Origin: an uncultured Pirellulales bacterium
Lineage (GTDB): Bacteria; Planctomycetota; Planctomycetia; Pirellulales; S012-138
NCBI GenBank assembly: GCA_964445985.1
Contig: CAYUMU010000083.1
Location: 1-29,328 of the forward strand
Reading direction: 5' to 3'
DNA: 29,328 nt
The translations under genes were made by a program, and so were the position numbers. How positions within the stretch are numbered: the stretch's first letter is position 1; every line of letters starts with the position of its first letter. The notes under the pieces are model-generated. The model did not search any database. It was not told the origin of the DNA and was given only the letters and a program-made list of their open reading frames with translations. This document shows, piece after piece, positions 5,720 to 18,961 of the stretch.

Positions 5720-6264
5720 GAGCTTTTGATTCGGTTTTGCGGGGAGAGCGGGGCTGGCGGAGCCATGTGGGTGCGAACGGAAATCGGCTCCAACATCCCC
5801 TTGATACTGTTCGGACGTTCCCCATTCTGGCAGTTTTTGGCAGGCGACTCCAGAGTGCGCGCCGCGGGATTTTAGGCCGGGGAGGGGGGTCTACTCCCCA
5901 GGCTGGCCCCGATAAGTTCTCTGCGAACTTGCGTTTGCCGGATGGTTGGAACCCCGTGGCTGGCTGTCAACTTTTTGGGACGCGGGTGTGCAAAACCTGA
6001 CGGCGAAGGGGTCTTGGCGGCTAGGACCGGGAGCGGAACACCCCCTCGGGTGGGGAGGGTGGCGGCCAGCAAATTGCAGCACGATTGAACTTTTCTGGTC
6101 GCAGGAATGACCCAAAATAGATGAGCCAAGCAACATTGCGATCGCTTTCCGTCGTTTGTGATGGTATTCAAGGCCGTTAAGTTATGGCATGCAAAGTGCT
6201 TGCGTACTACGGCGACCAGCAGCGCGCGTGAGGCGCACCGCGTTTTTCAGGAGTAGTGACCTCG

Positions 6265-7320
6265 ATGGCCCCATCTCGCTTACCGCGTCGAACCGTGCTG
6301 CAGGCATTGGCTGCTGGAACTTTAGGCACAGGCTACTGGATTTCGGGTGGGAGCCGGCCAGCCCAAGCGGCCATGGACCCCAAGGTGAAGGCCGCGGTGG
6401 AGCGGGGTTTGGACTGGGTTGCCAAAGCTCAGAACCGCGTGGGGCGGTGGGATGCTTCGAACCAGTACCGGGTGCCGATGACAGCCCTGGCTGGCGTGGC
6501 GCTGGCTTGCCAGGGTTCGACGACCACGCAAGGCAAATATGCCGAGCAGATTCGCCGGGCAACGGATTACTTGATTGCCCAATCGCGGTCGAATGGCCTG
6601 ATCGGCGAGATCAACGACCACCGCTACACCTACGGCCACGGCTTTTCGATGCTGTTTCTGTCGCAAGTGCTTGGTGAAGAAGAAGATATGCAGCGGCGGA
6701 AGCGGTTGACCGAAATTCTCACCAAGGCGGTCGATTTTTGCGTGAAGGCGCAAACGAACGCGGGCGGCTGGGGATATGTGAGCGCCAAAGACGGTGGCGG
6801 GTTCGACGAAGGGTCGACGACGGTGACCCAGGTTCAGGGATTACGCGGCTGTCGGAATGCCGGCATTCCGGTTCCCCGGGAATCGATTGAGAAGGCCATC
6901 AAATACATTCACAACTGCACGATGCCTGATGGGGGCGTTTGTTACAGTTCGCAAAGTCGCGGCGCCAGTCGCCCACCGATCACGGCCGCCGCGGTCGCCT
7001 GCCTGTTTAGTGCTGGCGAATACAAGAGCGACTACGTGAACAAGTTGCTCGACTACTGCAAACGCAACATTCACGACATTGAGAACCCTCGCGACGTATT
7101 TGGCCACTGGCATTACACTTACTACTACTACAGTCAGGCCGTCTACCGCATGCCGGGCAAAGATTGGATCCCCTACCGCGACAAGCTTTACCCTCGCCTG
7201 CTGCGGGAGCAAAGTTCTGAAGGTAACTGGAGCGGTGACATCGGGCCCATTTACGTGACCGCCCTGAACCTGACGATGCTGCAACTCGAGAACAGCTACC
7301 TGCCGATCTATCAGCGGTAA
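6265..7320 (+). CDS. Tat-exported prenyltransferase / squalene-oxidase-repeat (terpene-cyclase-like alpha-alpha toroid) protein.
   Basis: Twin-arginine leader SRLPRRTVLQALAAGTLG...AQAA. Repeated QxxxGxW-type motifs (NRVGRWDAS, NAGGWGYV, MPDGGVCYSS, SEGNWSGD). ATG 6265 is 11 nt after CAGGAG; GTG 6256 is an alternative start. Confidence 0.7.
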   Translation: MAPSRLPRRTVLQALAAGTLGTGYWISGGSRPAQAAMDPKVKAAVERGLDWVAKAQNRVGRWDASNQYRVPMTALAGVALACQGSTTTQGKYAEQIRRATDYLIAQSRSNGLIGEINDHRYTYGHGFSMLFLSQVLGEEEDMQRRKRLTEILTKAVDFCVKAQTNAGGWGYVSAKDGGGFDEGSTTVTQVQGLRGCRNAGIPVPRESIEKAIKYIHNCTMPDGGVCYSSQSRGASRPPITAAAVACLFSAGEYKSDYVNKLLDYCKRNIHDIENPRDVFGHWHYTYYYYSQAVYRMPGKDWIPYRDKLYPRLLREQSSEGNWSGDIGPIYVTALNLTMLQLENSYLPIYQR

Positions 7321-7327
7321 CCTGCTG

Positions 7328-7355
7328 GCGCAGATCAACTTAAGTTGATCTGCGC
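7328..7355. terminator. 28-bp perfect palindrome (gcgcagatcaactt|aagttgatctgcgc) 8 nt after the stop of the 6265-7320 gene. Candidate terminator hairpin or dimeric protein-binding site.
   Basis: Exact 14+14 palindrome read from the sequence. No T-tract follows it, so an intrinsic-terminator call is weak. Confidence 0.35.
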
Positions 7356-7639
7356 AGGGAGTTCCCCTCGCCGGCGGCTGCATGGCTGGGCCGGGAGTGG
7401 GATAGTAGCAGGTTTGCTTATCGAATTTGAAGCAGATTTCATACTGCCTTGTTGAACTTTCCCTCGCCTTGAGGACACCCATTTTACCGAGCAGGGTAGG
7501 CGGAAACGATTTCCCAACGCGGGGTCATCTTCTCTCCGCGGCCCGATCTCGCCCTCGACCTGGCGAGGAGTGGTGCGGATGGCCGCAGGCACTCGTTTAG
7601 AGCGGTGGCCGTGCCCTCCGGATTTTGGTGGGGATAACT

Positions 7640-7669
7640 TTGTGGGTTTCGGAGACAAACGGCTATAAT
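7640..7669 (+). promoter_or_regulatory. Sigma70-like promoter candidate (TTGTGG, 18 nt, TATAAT) upstream of the ECF sigma operon.
   Basis: ttgtgg at 7640-7645 and tataat at 7664-7669, about 110 nt upstream of the sigma-factor start. No canonical ECF-type GGAAC...CGT autoregulatory motif with correct spacing is seen. Confidence 0.25.
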
Positions 7670-7780
7670 AAACACCCAATACGTTGACCGGCCTTTTCGC
7701 CGCCACCGGATTACGCTGGCGGGCGTGCAGCATTGGCTGCCGAAGGACTTGGAGGCAGGCAACGTACGGGAGGAGCTGCC

Positions 7781-8341
7781 GTGACGATTGACGTGGACCA
7801 AGTAACACGCGAGCACTTTCCCCGCATTCATCGGGCCGCGCTGGTTCTCACGGGTAATCCCTGGGATGCCGACGACCTGGCTCAAGAAACGTTTTTGGTG
7901 CTGGCGGCGAAGGGTCACGAGTTTCAAGGACGCAGCAGCACCTACACCTACGTTTATGGCATTTTGTTGAATTTGGAACGCCGGCATCGGCGACGCTCGG
8001 GCATGCAAAAACGAAAGCTACGCGTACTGTGGGACAACGAGCCCCGGGAGCAATCGGTGCCCGCGGCCGAGACGGCGATTGAAGTGGCCGAGTGGAAAAA
8101 CAGTTTGTGGGCGGTGGTTGCCCGGCTGCCTGACGGCCAGCGTCAGGCATTGGTGTTGCGGTTCAGCGAGCATTTACGTTACGACGAGATTGCCGAAGTG
8201 CTGGGTTGCCCGGTGGGCACCGTGAAGTCGCGGATTTTCAATGGATTGACGGCTTTGCGAGAGCAGTTTGGCGCCGGCGACGCGAACGCGGCTGGCGACA
8301 TTCCCCGGCATGCTTGGGAGGATCTCACCCATGCCATTTAA
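7781..8341 (+). CDS. ECF-type RNA polymerase sigma-70 factor (sigma-24 family).
   Basis: Region 2 DADDLAQETFLVLAAKGHEFQGRSSTYTYVYGILLNLERRHRR; region 4 HTH QRQALVLRFSEHLRYDEIAEVLGCPVGTVKSRIFNGLTALRE. GTG 7781 preferred because GGGAGGAG (7768-7775) lies 5 nt upstream. TTG 7733 is an alternative start. Confidence 0.85.
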   Translation: MTIDVDQVTREHFPRIHRAALVLTGNPWDADDLAQETFLVLAAKGHEFQGRSSTYTYVYGILLNLERRHRRRSGMQKRKLRVLWDNEPREQSVPAAETAIEVAEWKNSLWAVVARLPDGQRQALVLRFSEHLRYDEIAEVLGCPVGTVKSRIFNGLTALREQFGAGDANAAGDIPRHAWEDLTHAI

Positions 8342-9131
8342 GCCCAAGTTAGTCTGTTTGGATTTCTCGACCGAGCACGGTGAGAACGAGTCAGCGAACG
8401 CGTTTGGAACTGATGCAGCGCGTGGCGCCCATGGCGATCGCCCCGAACCTACCTCGACCGACATGAACCTGTTTTTTGACGACGATCTGCTGGCCGATTT
8501 GCCGCCTGAGTTGCAGGCGTTCGCCTCGCAATTGAGTGACGAAGCGGATGGGCTGGTCGCGGCTTTTCCGGCGCGGGAAGTCCATTCCGCGCGGGTTGCC
8601 GGTGGAACGAATGGAATGCCGGTTGTTCTTGAAACATGTCTTTCTGAATCATCGCCCGAGTTTACGGTGGGCGGTTCGGGTGGCGTGACTGGTGAGGCTG
8701 GGGTTGGGGTTGGCGGCTGGCGTTGGCCGGGGCGACTGGCTCAGGTGGCCGCCATGATTGCGGTCCTGGCGGGGTTGAGCGCTCTGCCGCTGCAACGCGA
8801 TCATCGGGTGGCGAAAGAAGACGAAGTGGATCGGGAAAGCCAAGCGGGACGGGAAAGCCAAGCGGGCCGGGAAAGCCAAGTGGGCCGGGAAAGCCAAGTG
8901 GGCCGGGAAAGCCAGGTGGCGAGCATGGCCGAGCCAGCGGTGCCGCGGCCAGGGCGAGAGGCCCCATCGATTCAGGAAGTTGAACCAGTGGGGGCCGAAG
9001 CGGCGGTGATTGAGCCGGCAGGGTTATCGCCCACGGGGATGCCAGCCACCACGTTTGTTGAGTTATCGGGCGCGGAACAGGAAGCGTTGTTGGATTTGCT
9101 GAGCGAAACCGCGTCGATGGGATCGATTTAG
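8331..9131 (+). CDS. Putative single-pass membrane anti-sigma factor, translationally coupled to the ECF sigma gene and carrying (RESQ[AV]G)x5 repeats.
   Basis: ATG at 8331 overlaps the sigma stop (ATGCCATTTAA). One predicted TM segment (WRWPGRLAQVAAMIAVLAGLSALPL) sits between an acidic N-domain and a C-terminal repeat-containing domain. Gene order is sigma then partner. I recognise no zinc-finger anti-sigma motif. Confidence 0.5.
   Translation: MPFKPKLVCLDFSTEHGENESANAFGTDAARGAHGDRPEPTSTDMNLFFDDDLLADLPPELQAFASQLSDEADGLVAAFPAREVHSARVAGGTNGMPVVLETCLSESSPEFTVGGSGGVTGEAGVGVGGWRWPGRLAQVAAMIAVLAGLSALPLQRDHRVAKEDEVDRESQAGRESQAGRESQVGRESQVGRESQVASMAEPAVPRPGREAPSIQEVEPVGAEAAVIEPAGLSPTGMPATTFVELSGAEQEALLDLLSETASMGSI
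8832..8921 (+). repeat. Five tandem 18-bp units cgggaaagccaagcgggc (coding RESQAG/RESQVG), in frame inside the anti-sigma candidate.
   Basis: Direct reading; units differ only at A/V codon positions. Confidence 0.9.
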
Positions 9132-9175
9132 TCCGCAGGCGGGCCGACGTCGCACTCTCCCACCAGTCTGGACCC

Positions 9176-10666
9176 ATGACGAAGATGCGTAAAGTAACGC
9201 TGCTGGTGATGTTCTCGACTGCCTGCCTGGGCTGGGCAGGCGGTGTTGGGCTGCTGGGTGTTGGGCCGCTGGGTGGGGCGTTGCCGGGAACCGGGTTGTG
9301 GGCAGCGGAACCGGATTTATCGGGGTTGGATGTATCGAAACCGGAATCTGACCTGCCAGAATTGGCTCAATCAGCGCCTGTTCAATCAGCGCCTGTTCAA
9401 TCCCGTTCCGTGCCCTCGGATGCGAACCAGCTCAATGCCGAGCAGTTGGCTCGGCAACTTTCGGCTGCCACGGTAACCATTCGCGTGACCGTTCCGCCCG
9501 ACGCGGGCGTGACGGTTTGTTCGGGGGTATCGCTGGGCGATGGGTTCCTGGTGACGTACAGCAACCATCCGGGCAATGCCGAGTATCGATTGACATTGCC
9601 CGATGGCGCTCAGGCCCAGGCCGATGCCCGGGTGATTGATGTCTATTCGGGGCTGACCTTGCTGCAGTTGGCGGCCCAGCCGGCGGTTGAGGGGGGGGCG
9701 GCGAACCGCGAGCCGATCCAAGTCAAGAGTTTGACGCCGTGGGCGGAGCTTCCGGCCGCGGGCGCCACCATTCTCACGGCGGCCGCCGCGGGGCTCGAGC
9801 AACCGGTCGTGTCGCGAGGTATTTTGGGCGGGGCCGAACGCACGTTGAGCGGGACCGGCTTGCCGCCGCTGCTGCAGTGCGATGTGCGGACCACCGACAC
9901 CTCGAGCGGCGCGGCCCTGATTGATGAACGGGGACGGCTGGTGGGTATCGTGGCCGTGACCGCTCGGGAAGGTCGCAGCGGCGGTTGGACCTACGCCGTG
10001 CCTGCCAGCCATGTGCAGCGATTGCTGCGAGCCTATGCCCAAAAGCAAGCCGGCGACAATCGGCTGGTCATCCTGCGCCGCCAGCGCCCGATGCTGGGGC
10101 TCTCCATGGTTGCGGGCGAAGAGTCGGGCAGCGTGATCGTGGAGCGGCTCGAAGCGCAAGGGCCGGCCAAGAAATCGGGCGTGCTCCAGTCGGATGAGAT
10201 TCTGGAGGTCGACGGCCTCAAGGTGCGCAGTGTGTATCAGGTGGTGGCCCTGGTGATGAAAAAGCAGCCGGGCGACCGCATGGAATTCATGATTCGCCGC
10301 GGCGAGCGCACCGAAAAGATCGCCGTTACGCTGGAAGGCGGATCGGTGGTGGAGCCTTCGGAAGTGGTTCGCAATGGCGGCGAGTTGGCGGAGCAAAAGA
10401 TCACCGTGCGTCGCAGTGGCGATCAATACAATATTGATCGGCCCGTGATTCGCCAGTTGAACCAACCGGCCGAGGGGGACGATCCGCTGCCCTCGGCTCC
10501 CGCGCCGGCCGCGAATGCGGCGCAGTTGGCGTTGATTCAAGAGCAAGTCAAGCGGTTCGCCGCGTATATCGAAAAGCTGCGGGTCGATGTGCGCGACCGC
10601 GATGAGGAGTTGATGCAACTCCGCGCCGAGCTCGAAATGCTGCGAAAACAGCTCGAATCGCGATAG
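9176..10666 (+). CDS. Secreted HtrA/DegS-like trypsin-fold serine protease homologue with one PDZ domain and a C-terminal coiled coil.
   Basis: Signal peptide. Protease-fold motifs GDGFLVTYSNHPGN (His), DTSSGAAL (Ser). PDZ segment GLSMVAGEESGSVIVERLEAQGPAKKSGVLQSDEILEVDGLKVRS...GDRMEFMIRRG. C-terminal heptad-like LALIQEQVKRFAAYIEKLRVDVRDRDEELMQLRAELEMLRKQLE. The expected Asp position aligns to Gly (YSGLTLLQL), so the triad may be non-canonical. Confidence 0.6.
   Translation: MTKMRKVTLLVMFSTACLGWAGGVGLLGVGPLGGALPGTGLWAAEPDLSGLDVSKPESDLPELAQSAPVQSAPVQSRSVPSDANQLNAEQLARQLSAATVTIRVTVPPDAGVTVCSGVSLGDGFLVTYSNHPGNAEYRLTLPDGAQAQADARVIDVYSGLTLLQLAAQPAVEGGAANREPIQVKSLTPWAELPAAGATILTAAAAGLEQPVVSRGILGGAERTLSGTGLPPLLQCDVRTTDTSSGAALIDERGRLVGIVAVTAREGRSGGWTYAVPASHVQRLLRAYAQKQAGDNRLVILRRQRPMLGLSMVAGEESGSVIVERLEAQGPAKKSGVLQSDEILEVDGLKVRSVYQVVALVMKKQPGDRMEFMIRRGERTEKIAVTLEGGSVVEPSEVVRNGGELAEQKITVRRSGDQYNIDRPVIRQLNQPAEGDDPLPSAPAPAANAAQLALIQEQVKRFAAYIEKLRVDVRDRDEELMQLRAELEMLRKQLESR
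9367..9399 (+). repeat. Tandem 15-bp repeat tcaatcagcgcctgt (codes SAPVQ SAPVQ) in the protease N-terminal linker.
   Basis: Direct reading. Confidence 0.85.
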
Positions 10667-10669
10667 GTT

Positions 10670-10780
10670 TTCCACAACCTGATCGGCGATCCGGCTTATG
10701 CCGAGCAGGTTGCCAGATACCGCGGGCGGATGGCCGAGTGGATGAAGCAGACGGGTGCCCCCACGCCGACGAGCGAATGA
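10670..10780 (+). pseudogene. 37-codon relic of a sulfatase C-terminus (FHNLIGDPAYAEQVARYRGRMAEWMKQTGAPTPTSE*), 3 nt after and in frame with the stop of the protease gene.
   Basis: The translated motif x-NL-x-DP-x-YA...L...W-x-TGD/A is the characteristic last helix of arylsulfatases. There is no start codon and no upstream sulfatase body. Confidence 0.5.
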
Positions 10781-10832
10781 TGGCGCGGGTTTGCCGCGGC
10801 GTGCCGCTCATCTGGCCGCGGTCGGCGACCTG

Positions 10833-12188
10833 CTAGCGGGTAAACCAGATGAGGAGGGCGACGCCGACCAGCAGCACCGTTCCCACCGCGGCGGCAATGA
10901 GCCATAGTTGCCGCTGGTTCATGTTGTCTTGCTGCTCCAGGGCCTCGGCGACCTGTTCCATGTTGGGGTAGCGATCGGCCGGTTCTTTGGCGACCATTTT
11001 TTGAAACACCTGGTCCAGCCAGGCGGGCACGTCGGGGCGAATTTGCGAGAGGGAGGGGATCGGGCCGGTGCGATGGGCCATGAGTTTGTCGATCATGCCC
11101 TTTCCGGGGTAGGGAATCTGAGCGGTGAGCAGATGGAACATCACGCAGCCCAGGCTGTAGATATCGGCGCGGCCGTCGATGGAGCTGGCGTCGGTGGCCT
11201 GTTCGGGTGCGAGATAGTCGACGGTGCCGATCATTTGTCCGGGGCGAGTCAGGTCTTCGCCGTCGGCCATCGCGCCGTCGTCGTCGAGCTTGGCGAGAAT
11301 GAGGTTGGAAATCTTGATCTGCCCTCGATGGTTGACGATCAGATTTTCGGGTTTGACATTGCGATGATAGATGCCCTGGCCATGCAGATAGGCCAAGCCT
11401 TCGGCCGCGGAGCGGATGAACTCCACGACCGCTTCCACCGGCAACGGGCCGTGCTGTTGAATGATTTGCGCGAGGTCGGCGCCGCCCACGTATTCCATGG
11501 AGAGGAAGTGGATGTCGCCGTCTTCGCCCAGTTCGAACCCGGCCACGAGGTTGCTGTGCGACAGTTTGCGGGTGACTTTGAACTCGCGTTGAAATCGCTT
11601 GAGGACTTCGGTCTTGCTGGCGGCGGCCGGCTTGAGCAATTTGAGGGCGACGATGGCCCCGCTGCCGATGTGCCGCGCCTTGTAGACGGGGCCGGTCGAC
11701 GAACTGGCTGAACGCTCGAGCAGCTGATACTTGCCCACGCGCTTGCCGACGTTGCGGTCGCCCGTGGCGGCAGCGGTTTGGTTGGGGGCAGCGGTTTGGT
11801 TGGGGGCAGGGGGCTGGTTGGGGGCGGGGGCGGCTTTGCCAGCCACGGGCGCGGCGGGCAGGTTGGCCGCGGTTTCGGCTTGGGCCGCTTTGAGCATGGC
11901 TTCGAACGAGGCCTGGGCCGAGCGGAGGGCCGCATCGTAGGCCGCCTTGCGTCGGGCATCGCTCAGCCGGCTGTGGGCGAGCTGCAGTTCTTGCTGCAAA
12001 CGCATGGCCGCTTCGGCCTGGGGGCCGGTGGTATGGGGCCGAACGAGCGCCAGTCTGGATTGGGCGGCGCCGCGAATCACGGCCGGATCGGCCTCGAATC
12101 TTTTCAGGCCAAGCAGCACGTAGAGGTTGGGCGGCTGGTGGACGGGGTCGATGCCCAACCACTGCATGTACGGATCGAAAGGCTCCAT
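10833..12188 (-). CDS. Tail-anchored protein: degenerate J-like domain + protein-kinase-like domain that is a predicted pseudokinase (HRN and SNL in place of HRD and DFG) + C-terminal TM helix.
   Basis: Kinase fold: VALKLLKP (beta3 Lys present), YHRNVKPENLIV, IKISNLILAKL, TVDYLAPEQ. Codons checked on the DNA: cat cgc aat and tcc aac ctc. Gly loop degenerate (RSASSSTG). N-terminus PNLYVLLGL...RPHTTG...KAAYDAAL resembles a J domain lacking HPD. C-terminus LWLIAAAVGTVLLVGVALLIWFTR. ATG 12188 chosen; the ORF is open to 12614 without coding-like content. Confidence 0.7.
   Translation of the reverse strand: MEPFDPYMQWLGIDPVHQPPNLYVLLGLKRFEADPAVIRGAAQSRLALVRPHTTGPQAEAAMRLQQELQLAHSRLSDARRKAAYDAALRSAQASFEAMLKAAQAETAANLPAAPVAGKAAPAPNQPPAPNQTAAPNQTAAATGDRNVGKRVGKYQLLERSASSSTGPVYKARHIGSGAIVALKLLKPAAASKTEVLKRFQREFKVTRKLSHSNLVAGFELGEDGDIHFLSMEYVGGADLAQIIQQHGPLPVEAVVEFIRSAAEGLAYLHGQGIYHRNVKPENLIVNHRGQIKISNLILAKLDDDGAMADGEDLTRPGQMIGTVDYLAPEQATDASSIDGRADIYSLGCVMFHLLTAQIPYPGKGMIDKLMAHRTGPIPSLSQIRPDVPAWLDQVFQKMVAKEPADRYPNMEQVAEALEQQDNMNQRQLWLIAAAVGTVLLVGVALLIWFTR
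11770..11826 (-). repeat. About three tandem 18-bp units (coding APNQTA on the minus strand) in the linker of the pseudokinase gene.
   Basis: gcagcggtttggttgggg repeated; translation gives APNQPPAPNQTAAPNQTAA. Confidence 0.8.
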
Positions 12189-12686
12189 GGCGATACCCCC
12201 AGCCAGATGCATTCCAACAGGTCGGCGAATGCCTTTTATGCGAGGGGCAGAGCGATCGACGGTTGCGGAGGCGCGCCGCTGCAAGTTCGAACATGGTCCA
12301 CCCCCCGGCGGCGTGCCTTGATCGTAACAAGCCTGGCCCTGGTTTGCAGCAGGGAGTTTCGTGAAAGAGAGGAAGTCGTGGGATAGTTGGCGGATCGCGG
12401 GCTGCCCCCTTGCCGTGTGGCGTGTTCTGCATGCTTGCGCCAGTGGGCGTAAGCATGGCGCCCCGTGTGTAGCCGCGACCAGGCATTTCAGCGAATGCCG
12501 GCTGGCCGGCGCTTTACCTTGGCTGGCAACTGCTGTCACAATGGCAGCCAGGCCGGTCAAGCCTGGCGTGACGTGTCGGGAGAAGTCCCCACGGCAACGA
12601 ACGCGAACCGCCAACCGTTAAGCGGGAATCCGTGCCGGCCTCGCCCAACCCAAGACTCCCACCTGCTCCGCCTAGGAGAGCTGTGC

Positions 12687-15002
12687 ATGCGCGCGACCTT
12701 CGCTCTGTTTTTAGCTGCCGGGCTGCTGGCCAACATTCCTGGCCCATTGCCGCGGTGCTCGACACTCAATGCGGCGCCAATGGACGCCATTCCAGATGAA
12801 GGGGCCGTGGAAGCGCCGCCGGTGGAGGCAGCGAGCGTGCCGGGAGCCGGGCTGGACTTGGCCAGCGGGGTTTCTAGCCAGCCGCTTTCCGCGCAGCAAA
12901 TTGCGGCCCGATTTATGAAGTCGGTGGTGGTGATTACTTACACGGGCCGCGATGGGCAGCGGCAGGGGCTCGGCTCGGGTTTCATTGTTTCGCCCGATGG
13001 GCTGATCGCCACCAACCTGCACGTGATCGGCGAAGCGCGACCTATTCAGGTGCAGTTGGCCGATGGCAAACAGTACCAGGCCACGGAGGTGCTGGCTTCG
13101 GACGCGCAGCTTGATCTGGCCGTGGTGCGAATCGAGGCCAAGAACCTGGCGGCGCTGGAGCTGGGAGATTCTGACAAGCTGGCCAAAGGGCAAGACGTGG
13201 TCGCGCTCGGCAACCCTCAAGGCCTACGGCACAGCGTGGTGGCCGGGGTGGTTTCGGGCCGGCGGGAGATTGAAGGCAAGCCCATGATTCAGCTGGCCAT
13301 TCCCATCGAGCCGGGCAACAGCGGCGGGCCGCTGCTCGATTTGCATGGCCGCGTGCATGGGCTGCTGACGATGAAATCGCTGGTGACCGCCAACCTGGGT
13401 TTCGCGGTGGAGGTGAACGCGCTCAAGTCGCTGCTTGCCAAGCCCAACCCGGTTCCTATTGACCGTTGGCTCACCATTGGCACGCTCGACCCGGCCAAGT
13501 GGAGCGAAGCTAGCGGCGGTCGTTGGCGGCAACGGGCTGGTCGCATTCAGGTGGATGGCCTTGGCGATGGTTTCGGCGGGCGAAGCTTTTGTCTTTCCAA
13601 AGACGCGCCACCCGAGCGGCCGTTCGAACTGGCGGTGGAAGTCAAGCTGGATGACGAAGCGGGGGCGGCCGGCCTGGTGTTTGCCGCCGAAGACGAACTG
13701 CACTACGGCTTTTATCCTAGCGGCGGCAAGTTGCGGCTCACCCGCTTTGAAGGGCCCGACGTGCTGAGCTGGACGATTCTTTATGACCAGCGCAGCCCTC
13801 ACTACTTGCCCGGCGAGTGGAACTCGCTCAAGGTTCGCCTGGAGGATGAGCGGATGCTGTGTTACGTGAACGATCACCTGGTGGTGGAGACTCGTGATAA
13901 TCGTCTCAAAGGGCAGCATGTGGGCGTGGCAAAGTTCCGCGAAACCGCCGCCATGTTTCGCCATTTTCAGATAGGCAAGCAGGTCACCTCGCAAGGACCA
14001 TCGAAGGAGCTTGTGGAGCGAGTCAACGCCGCGGTGGCTACGATTCCCGCGCGGGGCGCGGTGGATCACCTGGTTCCCCAACTGAGCCCTATCGAGTCGC
14101 AAACCGCGGTGGCTTTACGGAATCGGGCTTTGGAGCTCGAACGGCAGGCCGCGCAGTTGCGCAAATTGGCGACCGACGTGCATCGGCAAAGCGTGTGCGA
14201 TGAACTGCACGCGACGCTCAGCCGCCCTGATGACCAGGTCGATTTGGCCAAGGCATCGCTGCTGGTTGCCCGGCTCGACAACGACGAAGTGGATGTGGCG
14301 GCCTATCTGCGCGATCTGGATCGGCGGGCTGAAGAAATTCGTCAGGTTCTGCCCAAAGATGCCGACGTGGCCGCGCGGCTGGCCGCGCTGAACAAGTATC
14401 TGTTTCAACAGAACGGTTTCCACGGGAGCCGCAATGATTACTATCACCGCTCGAATAGCTATCTGAACGAAGTTCTCGACGATCGCGAAGGGCTGCCGAT
14501 CACGCTGGCCGTGCTCTACATGGAGCTGGCGCAGCGGTTGGAGGTTCCGATTCAAGGCGTGGGGCTGCCGGGGCATTTTATTGTGAAGCACGCGCCCTCA
14601 AAGGGTAAGCCGCAACTGATTGATGTTTATGAAGGGGGCAAGCTGCTGACCGAGGGCGAAGCCAAGGCTCGCGTGAACGAGTACACCGGCTTGAACTGGA
14701 AAGACAGCTATCTGGATGGGGTTTCCAAGCAAGAGATCGTGGTGCGGATGATCCACAACCTGATGAACCTGGCCCGCGAGAAGCAGGACGCCGAGCAGAT
14801 GCTGGGCTATGTGGATGCCCTGATTGCGGTGCGGTCCAACGCAGAGGAAGAACGCTGGATGCGGGCCGTGCTGCGCTATCAAACGCAGCGTTTGAGCGGC
14901 GCGGCCGAAGACACGGCCTGGCTGCTGGAGCATCCGCTGCACGGGGTGAACGAAGAGCAAGTGCGGCGGCTACAGCGGCTGATTGAGGAGAGCCGGGAAT
15001 AG
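12687..15002 (+). CDS. Secreted tri-domain protein: canonical S1/HtrA-type serine protease + DUF1080 (LamG-like / 3-keto-disaccharide-hydrolase-like) + C-terminal transglutaminase-like/TPR (SirB1-type) domain.
   Basis: Signal peptide MRATFALFLAAGLLANIPG after GGAGAG RBS. Triad motifs ATNLHVI, DLAVVRI, GNSGGPL. DUF1080-like WNSLKVRLEDERMLCYVNDHLV. C-terminal ...NDYYHRSNSYLNEVLDDREGLPITLAVLYMELAQRLEVPIQGVGLPGHFIVKH followed by TPR-like helices. Confidence 0.75.
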   Translation: MRATFALFLAAGLLANIPGPLPRCSTLNAAPMDAIPDEGAVEAPPVEAASVPGAGLDLASGVSSQPLSAQQIAARFMKSVVVITYTGRDGQRQGLGSGFIVSPDGLIATNLHVIGEARPIQVQLADGKQYQATEVLASDAQLDLAVVRIEAKNLAALELGDSDKLAKGQDVVALGNPQGLRHSVVAGVVSGRREIEGKPMIQLAIPIEPGNSGGPLLDLHGRVHGLLTMKSLVTANLGFAVEVNALKSLLAKPNPVPIDRWLTIGTLDPAKWSEASGGRWRQRAGRIQVDGLGDGFGGRSFCLSKDAPPERPFELAVEVKLDDEAGAAGLVFAAEDELHYGFYPSGGKLRLTRFEGPDVLSWTILYDQRSPHYLPGEWNSLKVRLEDERMLCYVNDHLVVETRDNRLKGQHVGVAKFRETAAMFRHFQIGKQVTSQGPSKELVERVNAAVATIPARGAVDHLVPQLSPIESQTAVALRNRALELERQAAQLRKLATDVHRQSVCDELHATLSRPDDQVDLAKASLLVARLDNDEVDVAAYLRDLDRRAEEIRQVLPKDADVAARLAALNKYLFQQNGFHGSRNDYYHRSNSYLNEVLDDREGLPITLAVLYMELAQRLEVPIQGVGLPGHFIVKHAPSKGKPQLIDVYEGGKLLTEGEAKARVNEYTGLNWKDSYLDGVSKQEIVVRMIHNLMNLAREKQDAEQMLGYVDALIAVRSNAEEERWMRAVLRYQTQRLSGAAEDTAWLLEHPLHGVNEEQVRRLQRLIEESRE

Positions 15003-15099: not shown

Positions 15100-17166
15100 T
15101 TGAATCAGGGCGGCAAAGCCTTCGATCATTGGAAGGATTTTGTTGGGCAGATGCCCGCTGGGCCTTGGCGAGGACAGGCCCGCGTCGCGATCATCGACTA
15201 TGCTCTAGAAGCCAACTTTGATTTCGCGGCCGCGACCGAGCAAGCGATTGAAGGAGCCGCCACCCTTGCGAAAGCGATTGAAGCCGAGGCTCAAGCGTCC
15301 TGGAACGAGGCGGCCCTGGACATCCACTTTCGCATGGGACTCATTTCGCTGGCGGATAGTCGTTACGACGCCGCCATCCAGGCATTTAACCAAATGGAGA
15401 AGAGCCTTGCTGAATCACCCAAGACAGCCACCACAATCGCGTCGGATCGAGGAACACTGATTGCGGGCCTCGAACGACTCAAGGAGGTTTCCGCGGGGAG
15501 AATCCCGCTATTGCCCGAGGAAGTTGCCCGAGAAGCAGACGCCCAAACCGCGACCGTGCTTTCCTACAGCGTCCTTAACCTGGCGATGCAGCGGTATGAG
15601 AATGCTCAGAGGATTGCGTCCCGAATCGGCGTGAAACTCGGCTCCGGTGCCCGTCGGTCGTTCGCGGCTTTTGTTGAAGCTCGGGCACACATTGGGCTGC
15701 TGACAAGCGGTCAGGCTACATCGATGGCCTCAGATAAGACAAGGGAATCGGAACGGCAAACACAGGTGCTGCGGTTACGGTCGTTGCTTCAGCAAAGTCT
15801 CCGCGACTTTCCGACCGGCTCTTGGCACGACGAAACGTTGAGGGCGTTTGCTCGATTCATCGAATATCGGGCGGAGGAGCGATTTGGCGCTCAGGCAGAA
15901 TCCAAGGACCAGAATCGATCCCCGCAATCTCAGGCTAAGGCCTTGCTGGGAGCGCGAGGCGAGGCTTTGCCCTACTGGCTGCAAATTGTTGAGCGCCATC
16001 CCAAGAGTCCCCGATCAGAAGAGGCCATGTATCGTGCTGGACTTCTGCTGTGCGAGGCGCTTCAGGTGGAGTACGACAATGCTTCAAATCGCCGAGCCGA
16101 AGAGGCCGGTGCCCTCTTCAACCGCTTGATGGACGAGTACCCAAATAGCGTCCACGCAGGCGACATCTTCGTTCATCAGATCGACATTGCGTTGGAGTGG
16201 ACCTTCGAACTGGAAAAAGCCGCGAAACTGGCTCGTCGGGGTGTTCAATGGGCCAGTTCTCAAGATGTCAAAGTCATTGCGAAAGCCGACGGGGGCTTGG
16301 ATCCGGCGGCCGACGCCCTGGCGGCTGATGTCATCAAAGCCTCCAATGCGCGTTTGCCTGCCTGGGCACAGTCAGCCAACCCCGAAGCGAATAGCTTGCT
16401 CGATGACATGTATAATCTTTACCTGAGGGCGGGAATCCTGGCCTACCTCGAGGAAGACTATGAGGAGGCCGCACGCCACTTCGAATCTGCGGGACCGGCC
16501 AGGCCGGTTGAAGGAATGCAAGCCAATTTCGACCTGCAAAAGGTGGGGCTGTTCATCCTCTCCAACTCCATCAAGCGTAAGCAAGTCGCCTGGTACCCGG
16601 AGGCCATAGCCCACGCGAAATCCGACCAACTGAAACTCGCGATCAAACTGGCAGATACCTACCTGCACGCACAGCGTCCTGAAAAGGCACAGGCAATCTA
16701 CGAGCGTCTACTTAGTTCATCCTCTCCTACCGGGCGCCCCGACAAAGCCGTTGAAAGTTATTGTAGTATGCAATTGGCCCTGGCATGTTCTAATCAGGAT
16801 CTCGACTACGACAAGTCGAAAGCCATCTACGATCGCTTTTATCAAAAAGACTATGCGGTGTTCCCCTGGGCGGCGGATGCCATCATGCGATTATCCGTGC
16901 TGGAGTTTAACACGACACAGGATCCCAGGCGATCCATTAGTCACTATCAACACATCTTAAAACTTTATCCGAATCATCCAGATGCCGAGCGTGCGCTCTA
17001 TTTCCTCGTGCTCGATGCTGTAGCGATTGGTGATGAGCGAATGGCTGAATCGGCGAGTAAACTGTTCGAGGAAAGATATCCGCGCAGCGGTTGGAGAAAT
17101 CATGTTCACGAGGTGTTGAGGAACAATGTGCCAAACACTGAAGGGCGAGAAAAGGAGCAAGATTGA
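15100..17166 (+). CDS. Tetratricopeptide-repeat (TPR) protein, no evident signal peptide. Start uncertain: TTG 15100 or ATG 15151.
   Basis: 688-aa ORF with many Ala/Leu-rich helical repeats with W/Y at TPR positions. Its stop overlaps the next gene's start (TGATG). GC content drops through this gene. Confidence 0.6.
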   Translation: MNQGGKAFDHWKDFVGQMPAGPWRGQARVAIIDYALEANFDFAAATEQAIEGAATLAKAIEAEAQASWNEAALDIHFRMGLISLADSRYDAAIQAFNQMEKSLAESPKTATTIASDRGTLIAGLERLKEVSAGRIPLLPEEVAREADAQTATVLSYSVLNLAMQRYENAQRIASRIGVKLGSGARRSFAAFVEARAHIGLLTSGQATSMASDKTRESERQTQVLRLRSLLQQSLRDFPTGSWHDETLRAFARFIEYRAEERFGAQAESKDQNRSPQSQAKALLGARGEALPYWLQIVERHPKSPRSEEAMYRAGLLLCEALQVEYDNASNRRAEEAGALFNRLMDEYPNSVHAGDIFVHQIDIALEWTFELEKAAKLARRGVQWASSQDVKVIAKADGGLDPAADALAADVIKASNARLPAWAQSANPEANSLLDDMYNLYLRAGILAYLEEDYEEAARHFESAGPARPVEGMQANFDLQKVGLFILSNSIKRKQVAWYPEAIAHAKSDQLKLAIKLADTYLHAQRPEKAQAIYERLLSSSSPTGRPDKAVESYCSMQLALACSNQDLDYDKSKAIYDRFYQKDYAVFPWAADAIMRLSVLEFNTTQDPRRSISHYQHILKLYPNHPDAERALYFLVLDAVAIGDERMAESASKLFEERYPRSGWRNHVHEVLRNNVPNTEGREKEQD

Positions 17167-18647
17167 TGACTACTGTGTTTCAACGCTGGATTCTGCTGGC
17201 CCTTGCAACCCAAGTGATGACGTCGACCTGTGCCGATTGCACCGCCGCGGAGAGCGTCGACGAGCTCGGCGGAGCCAGAGGTCAGTACGCTTCTTTGGAT
17301 GCTGCCCCAGATCACCTGACGACCTACAAAGACGGTAAGACGCTACGGGTCACGGGCGGTTCTGCCGCTCCATTCTACACTTTTGATCAGGGCAAAGTCC
17401 GACTTACAGGCAAAGAGGGTTCCACGGCCACATTTTCAGGTAGATCTACGGGTTGGGGATGTATGTATACGGTCTACGGAGTGTATGAGGGAGGCTTTGG
17501 AGAATTTGCTCCTGAGCGCCTTATTGCTCGTTGGGAGAATCGTTTCGAGGATGCTGATGAACCCCGAATTGTGCTTATTGTTAACGAGCCTGGTCCTAGC
17601 GACGACATTGTGCTTCTGGGAGAAAACGGAGGTGAACTCCGGCTTAGCATCTTTGGGTTTCCGGGGGCCGTAGATGTGAGTTTGTCGGTAGCACCTCAGG
17701 GAAAGCTGGCCAGTTTTCCGGAATCCGTTATGGTAAGCTATGGTTCGGCAACAAGCGTCGTACTAAATGGACAAGCGGGTGGTCAAGTGACAATCACGGC
17801 AACCGCCACGATCAATAACGAAGAGGTCTCTGCGTCCATCAATGCAAGAATAGTCGGGTATCGTCCGTCAATTAATCCTGAAGACGACTTCGCTCAGCGA
17901 AGCCACCAGAAACTCGGTGTGGGTGAAACGGGCACCTTAGGGGTTGATCCTGCGCCAGGAACCGATATCGGTGAACTCACACTGACATGGACCATTGCCG
18001 CCGGCAATGGCCTATCACTTGCAAACGTCCATGAAACCAATGGCACGGCTGATTTCACGGCGGGGAATGTCGCAGGCGAGGCCACCATTGTTTTGGCTGA
18101 CTCACTCGGCAATGAATTCAGTACGACGGTACATGTAATCGAGCCAACTGCAGTGGTCCAGGAAATGTTTCGGCACGGAAAACAGTCGGGTGCGGGTATA
18201 GCTCACCAGATGAGGGCATACATGGACCTTTTTTCCTATCTGCGGCCAGCAGATGTCAGTTTTTGGAAAATCCAGGTGATTGAAGATGAATGCCCTGCCA
18301 TTGGAACAGGCAGCCAATTGAATGCAACCAACAACCCTGACGATGACCATGCTCGGTGGAACCACTGGGTTGATGTGGGCAAGGGGGATTCTTCAAAAGG
18401 CTGCTTAGTTTTGGGCCCCGGGATAGTTTCTAGTGACCCAATTAAGTATTACGATCAAGCTGGACTCTTGATAGACACTAACTACGTTGAGCCCGGAGCA
18501 TTGATGTGGAATATCCCTTGGCTTTACAAGATCGGCAATATTCAAGACAGGCAGTTCGCAACGGCAACTCAAATTTTCACATTCCTTGGCGATAGGGTCA
18601 GGGTGTTTAAGCAAGGGGTGCAAGTCGAAAAAGGCCCCCCCTGGTAG
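17166..18647 (+). CDS. Secreted protein with a bacterial Ig-like (Big_2-type) domain and a C-terminal domain of unknown function.
   Basis: Signal peptide MTTVFQRWILLALATQVMTSTCA. Big_2-like segment GVDPAPGTDIGELTLTWTIAAGNGLSLANVHETNGTADFTAGNVAGEATIVLADSLGNEFSTTVHVIE. Translationally coupled to the TPR gene. GC about 50 %. Confidence 0.6.
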   Translation: MTTVFQRWILLALATQVMTSTCADCTAAESVDELGGARGQYASLDAAPDHLTTYKDGKTLRVTGGSAAPFYTFDQGKVRLTGKEGSTATFSGRSTGWGCMYTVYGVYEGGFGEFAPERLIARWENRFEDADEPRIVLIVNEPGPSDDIVLLGENGGELRLSIFGFPGAVDVSLSVAPQGKLASFPESVMVSYGSATSVVLNGQAGGQVTITATATINNEEVSASINARIVGYRPSINPEDDFAQRSHQKLGVGETGTLGVDPAPGTDIGELTLTWTIAAGNGLSLANVHETNGTADFTAGNVAGEATIVLADSLGNEFSTTVHVIEPTAVVQEMFRHGKQSGAGIAHQMRAYMDLFSYLRPADVSFWKIQVIEDECPAIGTGSQLNATNNPDDDHARWNHWVDVGKGDSSKGCLVLGPGIVSSDPIKYYDQAGLLIDTNYVEPGALMWNIPWLYKIGNIQDRQFATATQIFTFLGDRVRVFKQGVQVEKGPPW

Positions 18648-18961
18648 AGTTGCTCCGGTTGTTGATCAAGGGCGACAACATCGAGACCGCGGCCGAAACT
18701 CGTTAAATCGTTGAGGTGCCAAAGCGACGTAATCGTGTATTTCGGTAGAATTGTAGCGGCTGCGCCTAGGAATTCACAACGACAAATCGCGAAGCCCCTA
18801 GAGTATGGAACCTAAGCTGTAGTCCTGCCGACCACTTAAGCGGAAACTACAGTTAGTTGCACAAAGTCAAAACCGGATGGCCCTTCCTTCGGAAGAGGTC
18901 GGCAAGAGGTCCGGCGATCCGCCCCTGTTGGGTTGGGCAACTTTTAATGAGGCTCTGGAAG

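Follow-up and report, generated by a model that had tools for sequence, protein, structure and literature searches.

Sigma factors of the extracytoplasmic function (ECF) type represent a major way of signalling in bacteria, and systems built on them are very numerous in planctomycetes. Some of their operons carry a gene of the HtrA family, among them algU-mucA-mucB-mucC-mucD of Pseudomonas, and both MucD and the HtrA protein of Mycobacterium tuberculosis are active proteases. In M. tuberculosis, the rseA-htrA-tatB operon comes after sigE, and what this linkage means has been described as unclear (PMC10027907). PDZ domains read the last three to four residues of a polypeptide, and the PDZ domain of DegS binds the C-termini of outer membrane proteins (OMPs) (PMC8103513). 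Here we describe a locus of this kind in an uncultured Pirellulales bacterium. The window, which is the complete 29,328-bp contig CAYUMU010000083.1 (~60% G+C), contains three genes on the plus strand that fill positions 7781-10666 and encode an ECF sigma factor, a membrane protein (hereafter the partner), and an HtrA-fold protein with a PDZ domain. The trio is a fixed three-gene signalling module conserved across the Pirellulales. Our preferred reading, to which we give a probability of roughly 55%, is that the three genes are co-transcribed and form an envelope-signalling module in which a membrane-bound anti-sigma factor is bound, through its C-terminal tail, by a non-catalytic PDZ sensor.

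The conservation of the module was examined in 47 loci, obtained from a scan of one genome per species and belonging to Pirellulales/Planctomycetia metagenome-assembled genomes and to the isolate Anatilimnocola sp. NA78, a cultured carrier whose locus, L044, lies at 7,587,238-7,598,278 of NZ_CP187419.1; the relatives of the window were Pirellulales/Planctomycetia throughout. Wherever at least 700 nt of upstream DNA was available, which was the case in 44 loci, tblastn located an orthologous sigma factor (51-84% identical) upstream and on the same strand; the other three of the 47 loci were truncated. On long, unrelated contigs the order of the cassette was unchanged, with a sigma factor of ~186 residues, an overlapping protein of 144-188 residues without any Pfam match, and a Trypsin/PDZ protein, and the flanking genes were entirely different from one contig to another. 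The sigma factor was more conserved than the HtrA-like protein (35-72% identical), and the partner evolved far faster than both. In the literature that we consulted, which for the ECF re-classification means its main text, neither this module nor a planctomycete ECF group linked to a protease or a PDZ protein was described.

The first gene (7781-8341, GTG start at 7781, TAA stop at 8339-8341) encodes an ECF (group 4) sigma factor of 186 residues, in agreement with an initial annotation of the locus made from the sequence. Matches above the cut-offs were obtained with Sigma70_r2 (E 1.3e-10), Sigma70_r4_2 (E 2.3e-15), Sigma70_ECF (22.9 against 21.1), and TIGR02937 (sigma70-ECF, 79.7 bits, cut-off 42.9). 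The named ECF equivalogs of NCBIfam that were tested (RpoE, SigE, SigW, and the Rhodopirellula/Verrucomicrobium subfamily) all remained below their cut-offs; the best of the named models was TIGR02983 (SigE family) with 107.6 bits against 141.55, and TIGR02939 (RpoE) and TIGR02989 gave 64.2 against 236 and 51.6 against 124.55, respectively. The nearest sigma factors of solved structure were SigE of M. tuberculosis (E 1.2e-17) and then AlgU, with SigW and RpoE also close. A divergent subgroup of the module, made up of the loci L011, L016, and L025, has a sigma factor that is only 51-53% identical and whose open reading frame extends ~150 nt further.

The second gene (8331-9131, plus strand) encodes a partner of 266 residues, a translationally coupled single-pass membrane protein and putative anti-sigma factor from an uncharacterised family. 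Its ATG at 8331 lies inside ATGCCATTTAA and overlaps the stop of the sigma gene by 11 nt, and the same overlap (ATGnnnnnTRR) was present in 37 of the 47 loci, so the coupling of the two genes proposed in the initial annotation was well founded. The partner orthologues from the syntenic loci aligned in five parts. The extreme N-terminus (MPFKPKLV, 8331-8354) follows the consensus M-[PR]-F-[DE]-P-[KR]-L-I, as seen in the alignment and in counts over 174 family members, and the overlap with the sigma gene constrains only its first 3-4 codons. A cytoplasmic amphipathic helix comes next (LPPELQAFASQLSDEADGLVAAFPA, 8499-8573), modeled by AlphaFold2 (AF2) as helix 59-78 with a predicted local distance difference test score (pLDDT) of 84-90; its consensus among orthologues is LPxDLAxLAxQLxxDAxxLAxxYPA, with L68 and L75 invariant and Y/F79-P80 nearly invariant in the family alignment, and we consider it a putative sigma-binding element. 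The transmembrane helix (residues 134-151, 8730-8783), an AF2 helix over the hydrophobic stretch GRLAQVAAMIAVLAGLSA, is preceded in family members by Arg-rich residues and followed by a linker of variable length. The last part is an extracytoplasmic C-terminal helix (LSGAEQEALLDLL, AF2 helix 247-262, pLDDT 77-86) with the orthologue consensus LSGPExEALLDLWE, continued by a short tail that ends in the window as ...MGSI-COOH (9057-9131 for helix and tail) and is a putative PDZ ligand. The AF2 model of the partner contained these three helices only, the remainder being disordered, and the single hydrophobic helix agrees with the single-pass topology that had been assigned to the protein.

A word-indexed homology search with the partner alone returned a single relative; the family became visible only once the orthologues had been taken from the syntenic loci and used as a profile. 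The exhaustive profile search yielded 621 representative clusters at E<=1e-3, of which 416 at E<=1e-10, all of them small proteins of 140-250 residues that were matched end to end. This large family of ~620 clusters is unannotated and lacks every known anti-sigma signature. The window partner itself had no match in Pfam or NCBIfam, no anti-sigma factor was found when the family profile was compared with the PDB, and 36 family members compared with the anti-sigma families of Pfam gave no credible match, the nearest being one RsiG-like match at E 0.23. Weak matches of some members to DUF3040 and DotU (best E 0.002-0.003) were taken to reflect helix or transmembrane composition and not homology, and were set aside. 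Class I anti-sigma domains are N-terminal bundles of ~70-90 residues with three to four helices, often with an HxxxCxxC motif (zf-HC2, RskA, and RsdA types). The partner shows no match to these domains, lacks HxxxCxxC, and has one confident cytoplasmic helix in the AF2 model, and the recognisable anti-sigma domain that would be expected from the initial annotation was therefore not recovered. Its N-terminal motif and single helix have a size compatible with class II or III domains (CnrY, NepR, and RsbN type), which are short helices wrapped around the sigma factor, with no homology detected in the PDB profile search. Synteny, overlap coupling, and single-pass topology are thus what point to an anti-sigma role, in which the amphipathic helix would bind the sigma factor.

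The same negative searches would fit a different account, in which the downstream genes are co-expressed cargo or part of the regulon, the partner is not an anti-sigma factor, the HtrA-fold protein is a periplasmic holdase or chaperone, and the sigma factor is controlled in some other way. The cytoplasmic part of some partners is very short, with only ~25 residues before the YPA motif in L041, and DegP is known to have a chaperone function as well. Moreover, RpoE-type regulons classically include htrA/degP (PMC8103513), and the function of the rseA-htrA-tatB linkage in M. tuberculosis is still unexplained (PMC10027907). However, the strict synteny and the overlap kept in 37 of 47 loci speak against a cargo relationship, and the conserved cytoplasmic elements of the partner reach well beyond the overlapping codons, as is typical of sigma/anti-sigma pairs. 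A generic chaperone would also not be expected to lie always beside a partner with an invariant C-terminal tripeptide, and we regard this account as unlikely.

The third gene (9176-10666, plus strand) encodes a secreted HtrA-fold protein of 496 residues with one PDZ domain and a C-terminal coiled coil; an alternative start at 9185 gives a protein of 493 residues, which corresponds to the database protein P0001. Trypsin_2 (35.1, cut-off 27.6) and PDZ_2 (46.6, cut-off 27, E 4.4e-12) were matched. The AF2 model, built with an alignment of 40 sequences, had a mean pLDDT of 80.6, with values >90 in the core, and showed two beta-barrels, the PDZ domain, and a C-terminal helix of 50 residues (443-492, 10511-10660, pLDDT 90-97) that is predicted to form a coiled coil and in which the heptad-like positions L451, I462, and L486 are conserved. 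A Foldseek search with the model returned DegP, DegS, DegQ, AlgW, and MucD as top matches (E ~1e-20), and the family profile matched HtrA in the PDB at E 1e-33. A hydrophobic N-terminus was present in the window protein and in 108 of 120 homologues, consistent with export, and the Ala-rich sites that follow it in relatives resemble signal-peptide cleavage sites. All parts of the architecture previously described for this gene, namely a secreted trypsin-fold protein with a PDZ domain and a C-terminal coiled coil, were recovered.

The trypsin-fold domain (9437-10054) has a degenerate triad. The triad positions were mapped with hhalign to the canonical HtrA domain encoded at 12882-13454 and, independently, by a profile alignment to the solved DegP-like structure 7xs0, and the two alignments agreed. 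At the position of the catalytic His, the window protein has Asn (9563-9565), and the 120 homologues have S, N, G, T, A, R, and others, with no His among the counts listed; a His one position off in the window protein (9566-9568) is common to only five homologues. At the position of the catalytic Asp, the window protein has Gly (9650-9652), and the homologues have G (110), S (6), R (2), and H (2), with no Asp. The position of the catalytic Ser is occupied by Ser in the window protein (9905-9907) and, among the homologues, by S in 80 (67%), T in 9, C in 9, P in 8, A in 5, and N in 4, followed by others. The replacement of Asp by Gly had been noticed in the initial annotation, which missed the loss of His; its suspicion that the protein is an inactive or sensor homologue was borne out across the 120 homologues. 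As judged from its sequence, the third protein is a family-wide pseudoprotease and cannot work as a His-Asp-Ser protease, given that the family as a whole has lost both His and Asp. Even so, no other part of the pseudoprotease is as conserved as the trypsin-fold domain, whose mean column conservation is 0.60-0.69 over the 120 homologues. Such conservation of a dead domain argues for a retained non-catalytic, binding function, and the HtrA-like protein probably senses rather than cuts.

These results bear directly on the model taken from the initial annotation, a site-1 protease of the DegS type in which the binding of stress peptides to the PDZ domain would lead the active third protein to cleave the partner. 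The HtrA fold with a single PDZ domain, the place of DegS among the best structural matches, and the linkage of the gene to the sigma/partner pair all speak for such a protease, and the window protein has the Ser equivalent, next to another Ser (S240) that is nearly invariant. Against it, no His (among the counts listed) and no Asp occurred in the triad columns of the 120 homologues, a third of which have lost the Ser to T, C, P, A, N, or G, and both alignments to canonical or solved HtrA proteins placed the triad identically. The protein has the chymotrypsin fold followed by a PDZ domain, as in the HtrA/S1C group, but not the His-Asp-Ser triad of that group; it scored 54.9 bits with the DegS equivalog TIGR02038 (cut-off 422.95) and 55-75 bits with the DegS/DegP models of NCBIfam, whose cut-offs are >400. 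We consider an active DegS-like enzyme highly improbable, and the analogy with DegS as a site-1 protease was abandoned. Homologues are labeled "S1C family serine protease", "serine protease Do", or "DegS" in databases, and these labels are probably wrong as to activity.

The PDZ domain of the pseudoprotease (10067-10354, PDZ_2 E 4.4e-12) has an intact carboxylate-binding loop, R-P-M-L-G-L (10085-10102), which conforms to the R/K-x-x-hydrophobic-G-hydrophobic pattern of peptide-binding PDZ domains and was aligned with R-G-Y-L-G-V of the solved HtrA structure 7xs0. Within this loop, R301 and P302 were each conserved in 118 of 120 homologues and G305 in all 120. When the tail of the partner was examined in 147 family representatives, position -2 was I, L, or V in 144, position -1 was S in 129 and A in 14, and the last residue was F or I in 141, so that each position of the pattern [ILV]-[SA]-[FI] held in ~96-98% of the representatives; in 122 of the 147, the tail lay 13 residues after the helix motif. 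The tail is PDZ-ligand-like because a free C-terminus is conserved at a fixed register and is hydrophobic at positions 0 and -2, and the sequence [ILV]-S-[FI]-COOH looks like a PDZ ligand and resembles the C-terminus of an OMP. The sole PDZ domain co-encoded with the partner is found in the next gene. The conservation itself suggests a simple ligand-receptor pair of tail and PDZ domain, and the partner tail may dock in the PDZ domain of the pseudoprotease. In the divergent subgroup L011, L016, and L025, the partner tails are ...LEGIADLEQPGFALGI or ...GFELEI instead of ...LS[IF], still hydrophobic but with Gly or Glu at position -1.

A conserved tail could also be read by a PDZ protease encoded elsewhere, of the RseP site-2 type or of the Prc/Ctp type, in which case the partner would be an anti-sigma factor and the pseudo-HtrA an adaptor or regulator, for example through mixed oligomers with an active HtrA paralogue. 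On DegS-cut RseA, the PDZ domain of RseP needs the C-terminal residue to be hydrophobic, and C-termini of non-polar character are recognised by tail-specific proteases; both points count for an unlinked reader. A canonical-triad HtrA-like gene lies nearby in the window (12465-15002), and degenerate HtrA domains are known to serve oligomerisation, as in plant DEG7 (PMC3194040), or to activate a paralogue, as MamO does with MamE (PMC4794232). On the other hand, the nearby canonical gene is absent from the neighborhoods of L001, L004, and L005, and the co-encoded PDZ domain, with its intact and nearly invariant loop, is the simplest reader of the tail. An unlinked reader therefore appears quite unlikely to us.

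Two promoter elements were found upstream of the module, and both emerged only from the comparison across loci; a scan of 7250-10950 for the sigma-70 consensus returned no promoter and no convincing terminator. The family motif TGAACYTT-N13-GGCACYAAC occurred upstream of the sigma gene, on its strand, in 20 of the 47 loci with a strict regular expression and in 23 with a relaxed one; with the strict expression, the opposite strand gave 0 matches and shuffled sequences a mean of 0.34. The candidate ECF-type, autoregulatory promoter of the window, TGAACTTT-N13-GGACACCCAT (7453-7482), is the only match in the window. Its assignment is tentative because it contains three mismatches and 15% of whole-window shuffles gave at least one match. 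The initial annotation had pointed to the region upstream of 7781 for a target promoter of this ECF group, and such a motif does recur in the family, although its counterpart in the window keeps this tentative status. The second element is of the housekeeping type and consists of TTGTGG, an 18-nt spacer, and TATAAT (7640-7669, -10 box at 7664-7669). Of 42 non-redundant loci, ~33 had a TAnAAT/TAnACT box following G(G)C/T at a distance of 47-131 nt upstream of the start of the sigma gene, and CGGCTATA.T was invariant among the four closest loci. Farther upstream, just after the stop of a prenyltransferase/SQHop-cyclase-like gene (6256-7320), a perfect palindrome with 12-bp arms, GCGCAGATCAAC-TTAA-GTTGATCTGCGC (7328-7355), gives a hairpin of -25.3 kcal/mol (7321-7362) without a T-run. 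The palindrome probably serves as a terminator or binds a protein, and the hairpin probably marks the start of the transcription unit of the module.

The gene identities, the strict synteny, the translational coupling, the loss of the triad, the conservation of the PDZ loop and of the tail, and the recurrence of the promoter motif are observed here; binding of the sigma factor by the partner, docking of the tail in the PDZ domain, the nature of the signal, and release by proteolysis are inferred. Taken together, we propose that the partner, with its N-terminus inside and its C-terminus outside, would be made in step with the sigma factor through the 11-nt stop/start overlap and would most likely sequester it at the membrane by means of the MPF(D/E)PKLI N-terminus and one amphipathic helix, acting as an anti-sigma factor outside class I. 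Its C-terminus, [ILV]-S-[FI]-COOH, would dock in the PDZ domain of the pseudoprotease, which may oligomerise through the C-terminal coiled coil and could act as a non-catalytic sensor or guard, in a role like that of RseB or CnrX but with a DegS-type peptide-reading domain. An envelope signal might then displace or remodel the complex, leading to inactivation of the partner, probably by unlinked proteases, and the freed sigma factor would drive its own operon, among other targets, from the TGAACYTT-N13-GGCACYAAC promoter, in a positive autoregulation. In a more specific version, the signal would be sensed by competition and the module would need no site-1 protease of its own: the PDZ domain of the dead HtrA protein would shield the OMP-like tail of the anti-sigma factor until the C-termini of unassembled envelope proteins displaced it, after which general tail-reading proteases or RseP would act and the sigma factor would be freed. 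We put this version forward as a possibility, with some doubt. If this version is correct, DegS-type peptide sensing has been turned into a non-enzymatic guard, and the partner represents a new class of anti-sigma factor, made of an N-terminal peptide and one helix, that is widespread in the Pirellulales.

Several observations weigh against the proposed tail-bound sensor and its sigma circuit. The partner carries no anti-sigma domain signature of any class in the Pfam, NCBIfam, and PDB profile searches, and its monomer was poorly modeled by AF2 (pLDDT 59.5), with three helices and no fold usable for a structure search. The tail of the window partner ends in G-S-I, and Gly at position -2 was seen in only one of the 147 representatives. 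The mutual information between the last residue of the partner and the PDZ columns, calculated from 31 locus pairs, was uninformative, since the top columns were the most variable ones and driven by phylogeny. The window protein keeps the equivalent of the catalytic Ser, and a non-canonical hydrolytic activity is formally possible. Finally, the ECF-type match in the window, besides its three mismatches, is located ~90 nt further upstream than in the closest relatives, and the conservation of a -10 box of the housekeeping type raises the possibility that expression is in large part constitutive.

The initial annotation had also drawn attention to five exact RESQ(A/V)G repeats in the extracytoplasmic part of the partner. 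An 18-bp in-frame tandem repeat is indeed present in the variable extracytoplasmic linker, C-terminal to the membrane helix (8824-8919, plus strand; Tandem Repeats Finder: 5.3 copies, 92% matches, score 150), and reads in frame (8832-8921) as RESQAG, RESQAG, RESQVG, RESQVG, and RESQVA. Four units thus follow the pattern, and the fifth, which ends in Ala, does not. The nearest relative of the partner (P0121, 57% identical) has an unrelated short stretch in place of the repeat, which was likewise absent from all other partner orthologues in the alignment. The partner of L019 (2740-3405) has a repeat of its own in the periplasmic linker (TVPN x6), that of L033 (2967-3902), in a sequence that contains a masked run of N, carries QESRS x6 in its N-terminal, cytoplasmic part and, past the membrane helix, LISSGK x4, and that of L037 has ELVPA x2. 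Within the window, 15-bp repeats at 9242-9275 and 9367-9402 encode GVGLL and QSAPV in a disordered linker of the N-terminal region of the pseudoprotease, and an 18-bp repeat at 11765-11831 encodes PNQTAA in a disordered linker of the Ser/Thr kinase gene on the minus strand. These examples suggest that linker repeat expansion is a general tendency in the genome of the window. We do not count the RESQ repeat among the features of the system, because it is missing in the nearest relative and the other orthologues and because neighboring genes have similar linker repeats; it is a recent, lineage-specific expansion in a length-tolerant linker and lies outside the mechanism. With regard to the slippage-driven length variants raised in the initial annotation, no second copy of the species was found in metagenome contigs when these were scanned for the exact repeat pattern and for the partner protein.

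Downstream of the module, a Ser/Thr protein kinase gene on the minus strand (10833-12269) converges on it; the N-terminus of the kinase, MEPFDPYMQWLGIDP...NLYVLLGL, looks J-domain-like. It is followed by the second HtrA-like gene of the window (12465-15002, plus strand), which encodes a protein of 845 residues with a canonical triad context (TNLHV, DLAVV, and GNSGG) and no PDZ domain. The architecture of this protein is unusual, the HtrA-like part being fused to a domain resembling 3-keto-disaccharide hydrolases and to a C-terminal module of Transglut_core2 and TPR (SirB1-like). Both genes were considered as members of the module and rejected because neither is conserved next to it in L004 or L005. 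The closest relatives, L001 and L002, have a large kinase with an FGE-sulfatase domain beside the module on the same strand, and none was seen in L004 and L005. Elsewhere in the window, positions 16001-21000 have a G+C content of 0.50-0.55, compared with ~0.60-0.65 in the remainder, and could be foreign or compositionally distinct DNA; this stretch spans the genes 15100-17166 (TPR), 17163-18647 (no Pfam match), and 18857-21928 (1023 residues, PBP_like_2). A 14-bp tandem repeat (AGTTCGGAGTGGGG x2.7, 95% matches) is located at 48-85, at the very start of the contig.

When compared with described systems, the module shares features with several of them. The RseA protein of M. tuberculosis is a soluble class I anti-sigma factor, whereas the partner is membrane-bound and has no class I signature. 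The order of sigma factor, anti-sigma factor, and HtrA-family gene is the same as in M. tuberculosis (PMC10027907), whose SigE is the closest solved sigma factor; the linkage of an HtrA gene to an ECF pair is therefore not unusual, and by itself it is not novel. However, HtrA of M. tuberculosis is an essential serine protease, and sigE and rseA are not co-transcribed there (PMC10027907), whereas the sigma and partner genes of the window overlap.

With the RpoE/RseA/RseB system of E. coli and its proteases DegS and RseP, the module has in common an ECF sigma factor with a single-pass membrane anti-sigma factor (putative in the module), an accessory protein of the periplasm whose gene lies in the operon (RseB in E. 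coli), and an HtrA-fold reader of C-termini with a single PDZ domain (DegS) (PMC8103513), and RpoE is among the nearest solved sigma factors. In contrast to E. coli, the HtrA-fold protein is encoded in the operon here and lacks His and Asp, so that no site-1 cleavage would be expected from it, and the partner, unlike RseA, has no class I anti-sigma domain. The conserved C-terminal peptide is the partner's own in this module, whereas in E. coli it belongs to outer-membrane proteins.

CnrX contacts its anti-sigma factor and, unlike an HtrA/PDZ protein, is helical and binds metals. The CnrH/CnrY/CnrX system resembles the module in that it combines an ECF sigma factor, a small single-pass anti-sigma factor with a very short cytoplasmic segment (anti-sigma domain class II, PMC8103513), and a periplasmic sensor. 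MamO and plant DEG7 provide a parallel of another kind, since they have a trypsin/HtrA fold with a degenerate triad, the fold being kept under selection for a non-catalytic role (PMC4794232, PMC3194040). MamO differs from the pseudoprotease in that it carries a fused transporter domain, binds metals, and acts as an activator of MamE when magnetosomes form, whereas the family described here has kept its PDZ domain, has an additional coiled coil, and belongs to an ECF sigma module; the MamO model of NCBIfam gave only 13 bits.

Because the pseudoprotease lacks the S1C triad and the partner lacks a class I anti-sigma domain, we classify the module as a variant of the ECF sigma/anti-sigma/sensor type and not as a homologue of the DegS/RseA system. 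By analogy, the function of the pseudoprotease may come nearer to that of RseB or CnrX, despite its DegS scaffold, and after MamO the protein would provide a second independent case in which an HtrA protease has taken on a non-catalytic role.

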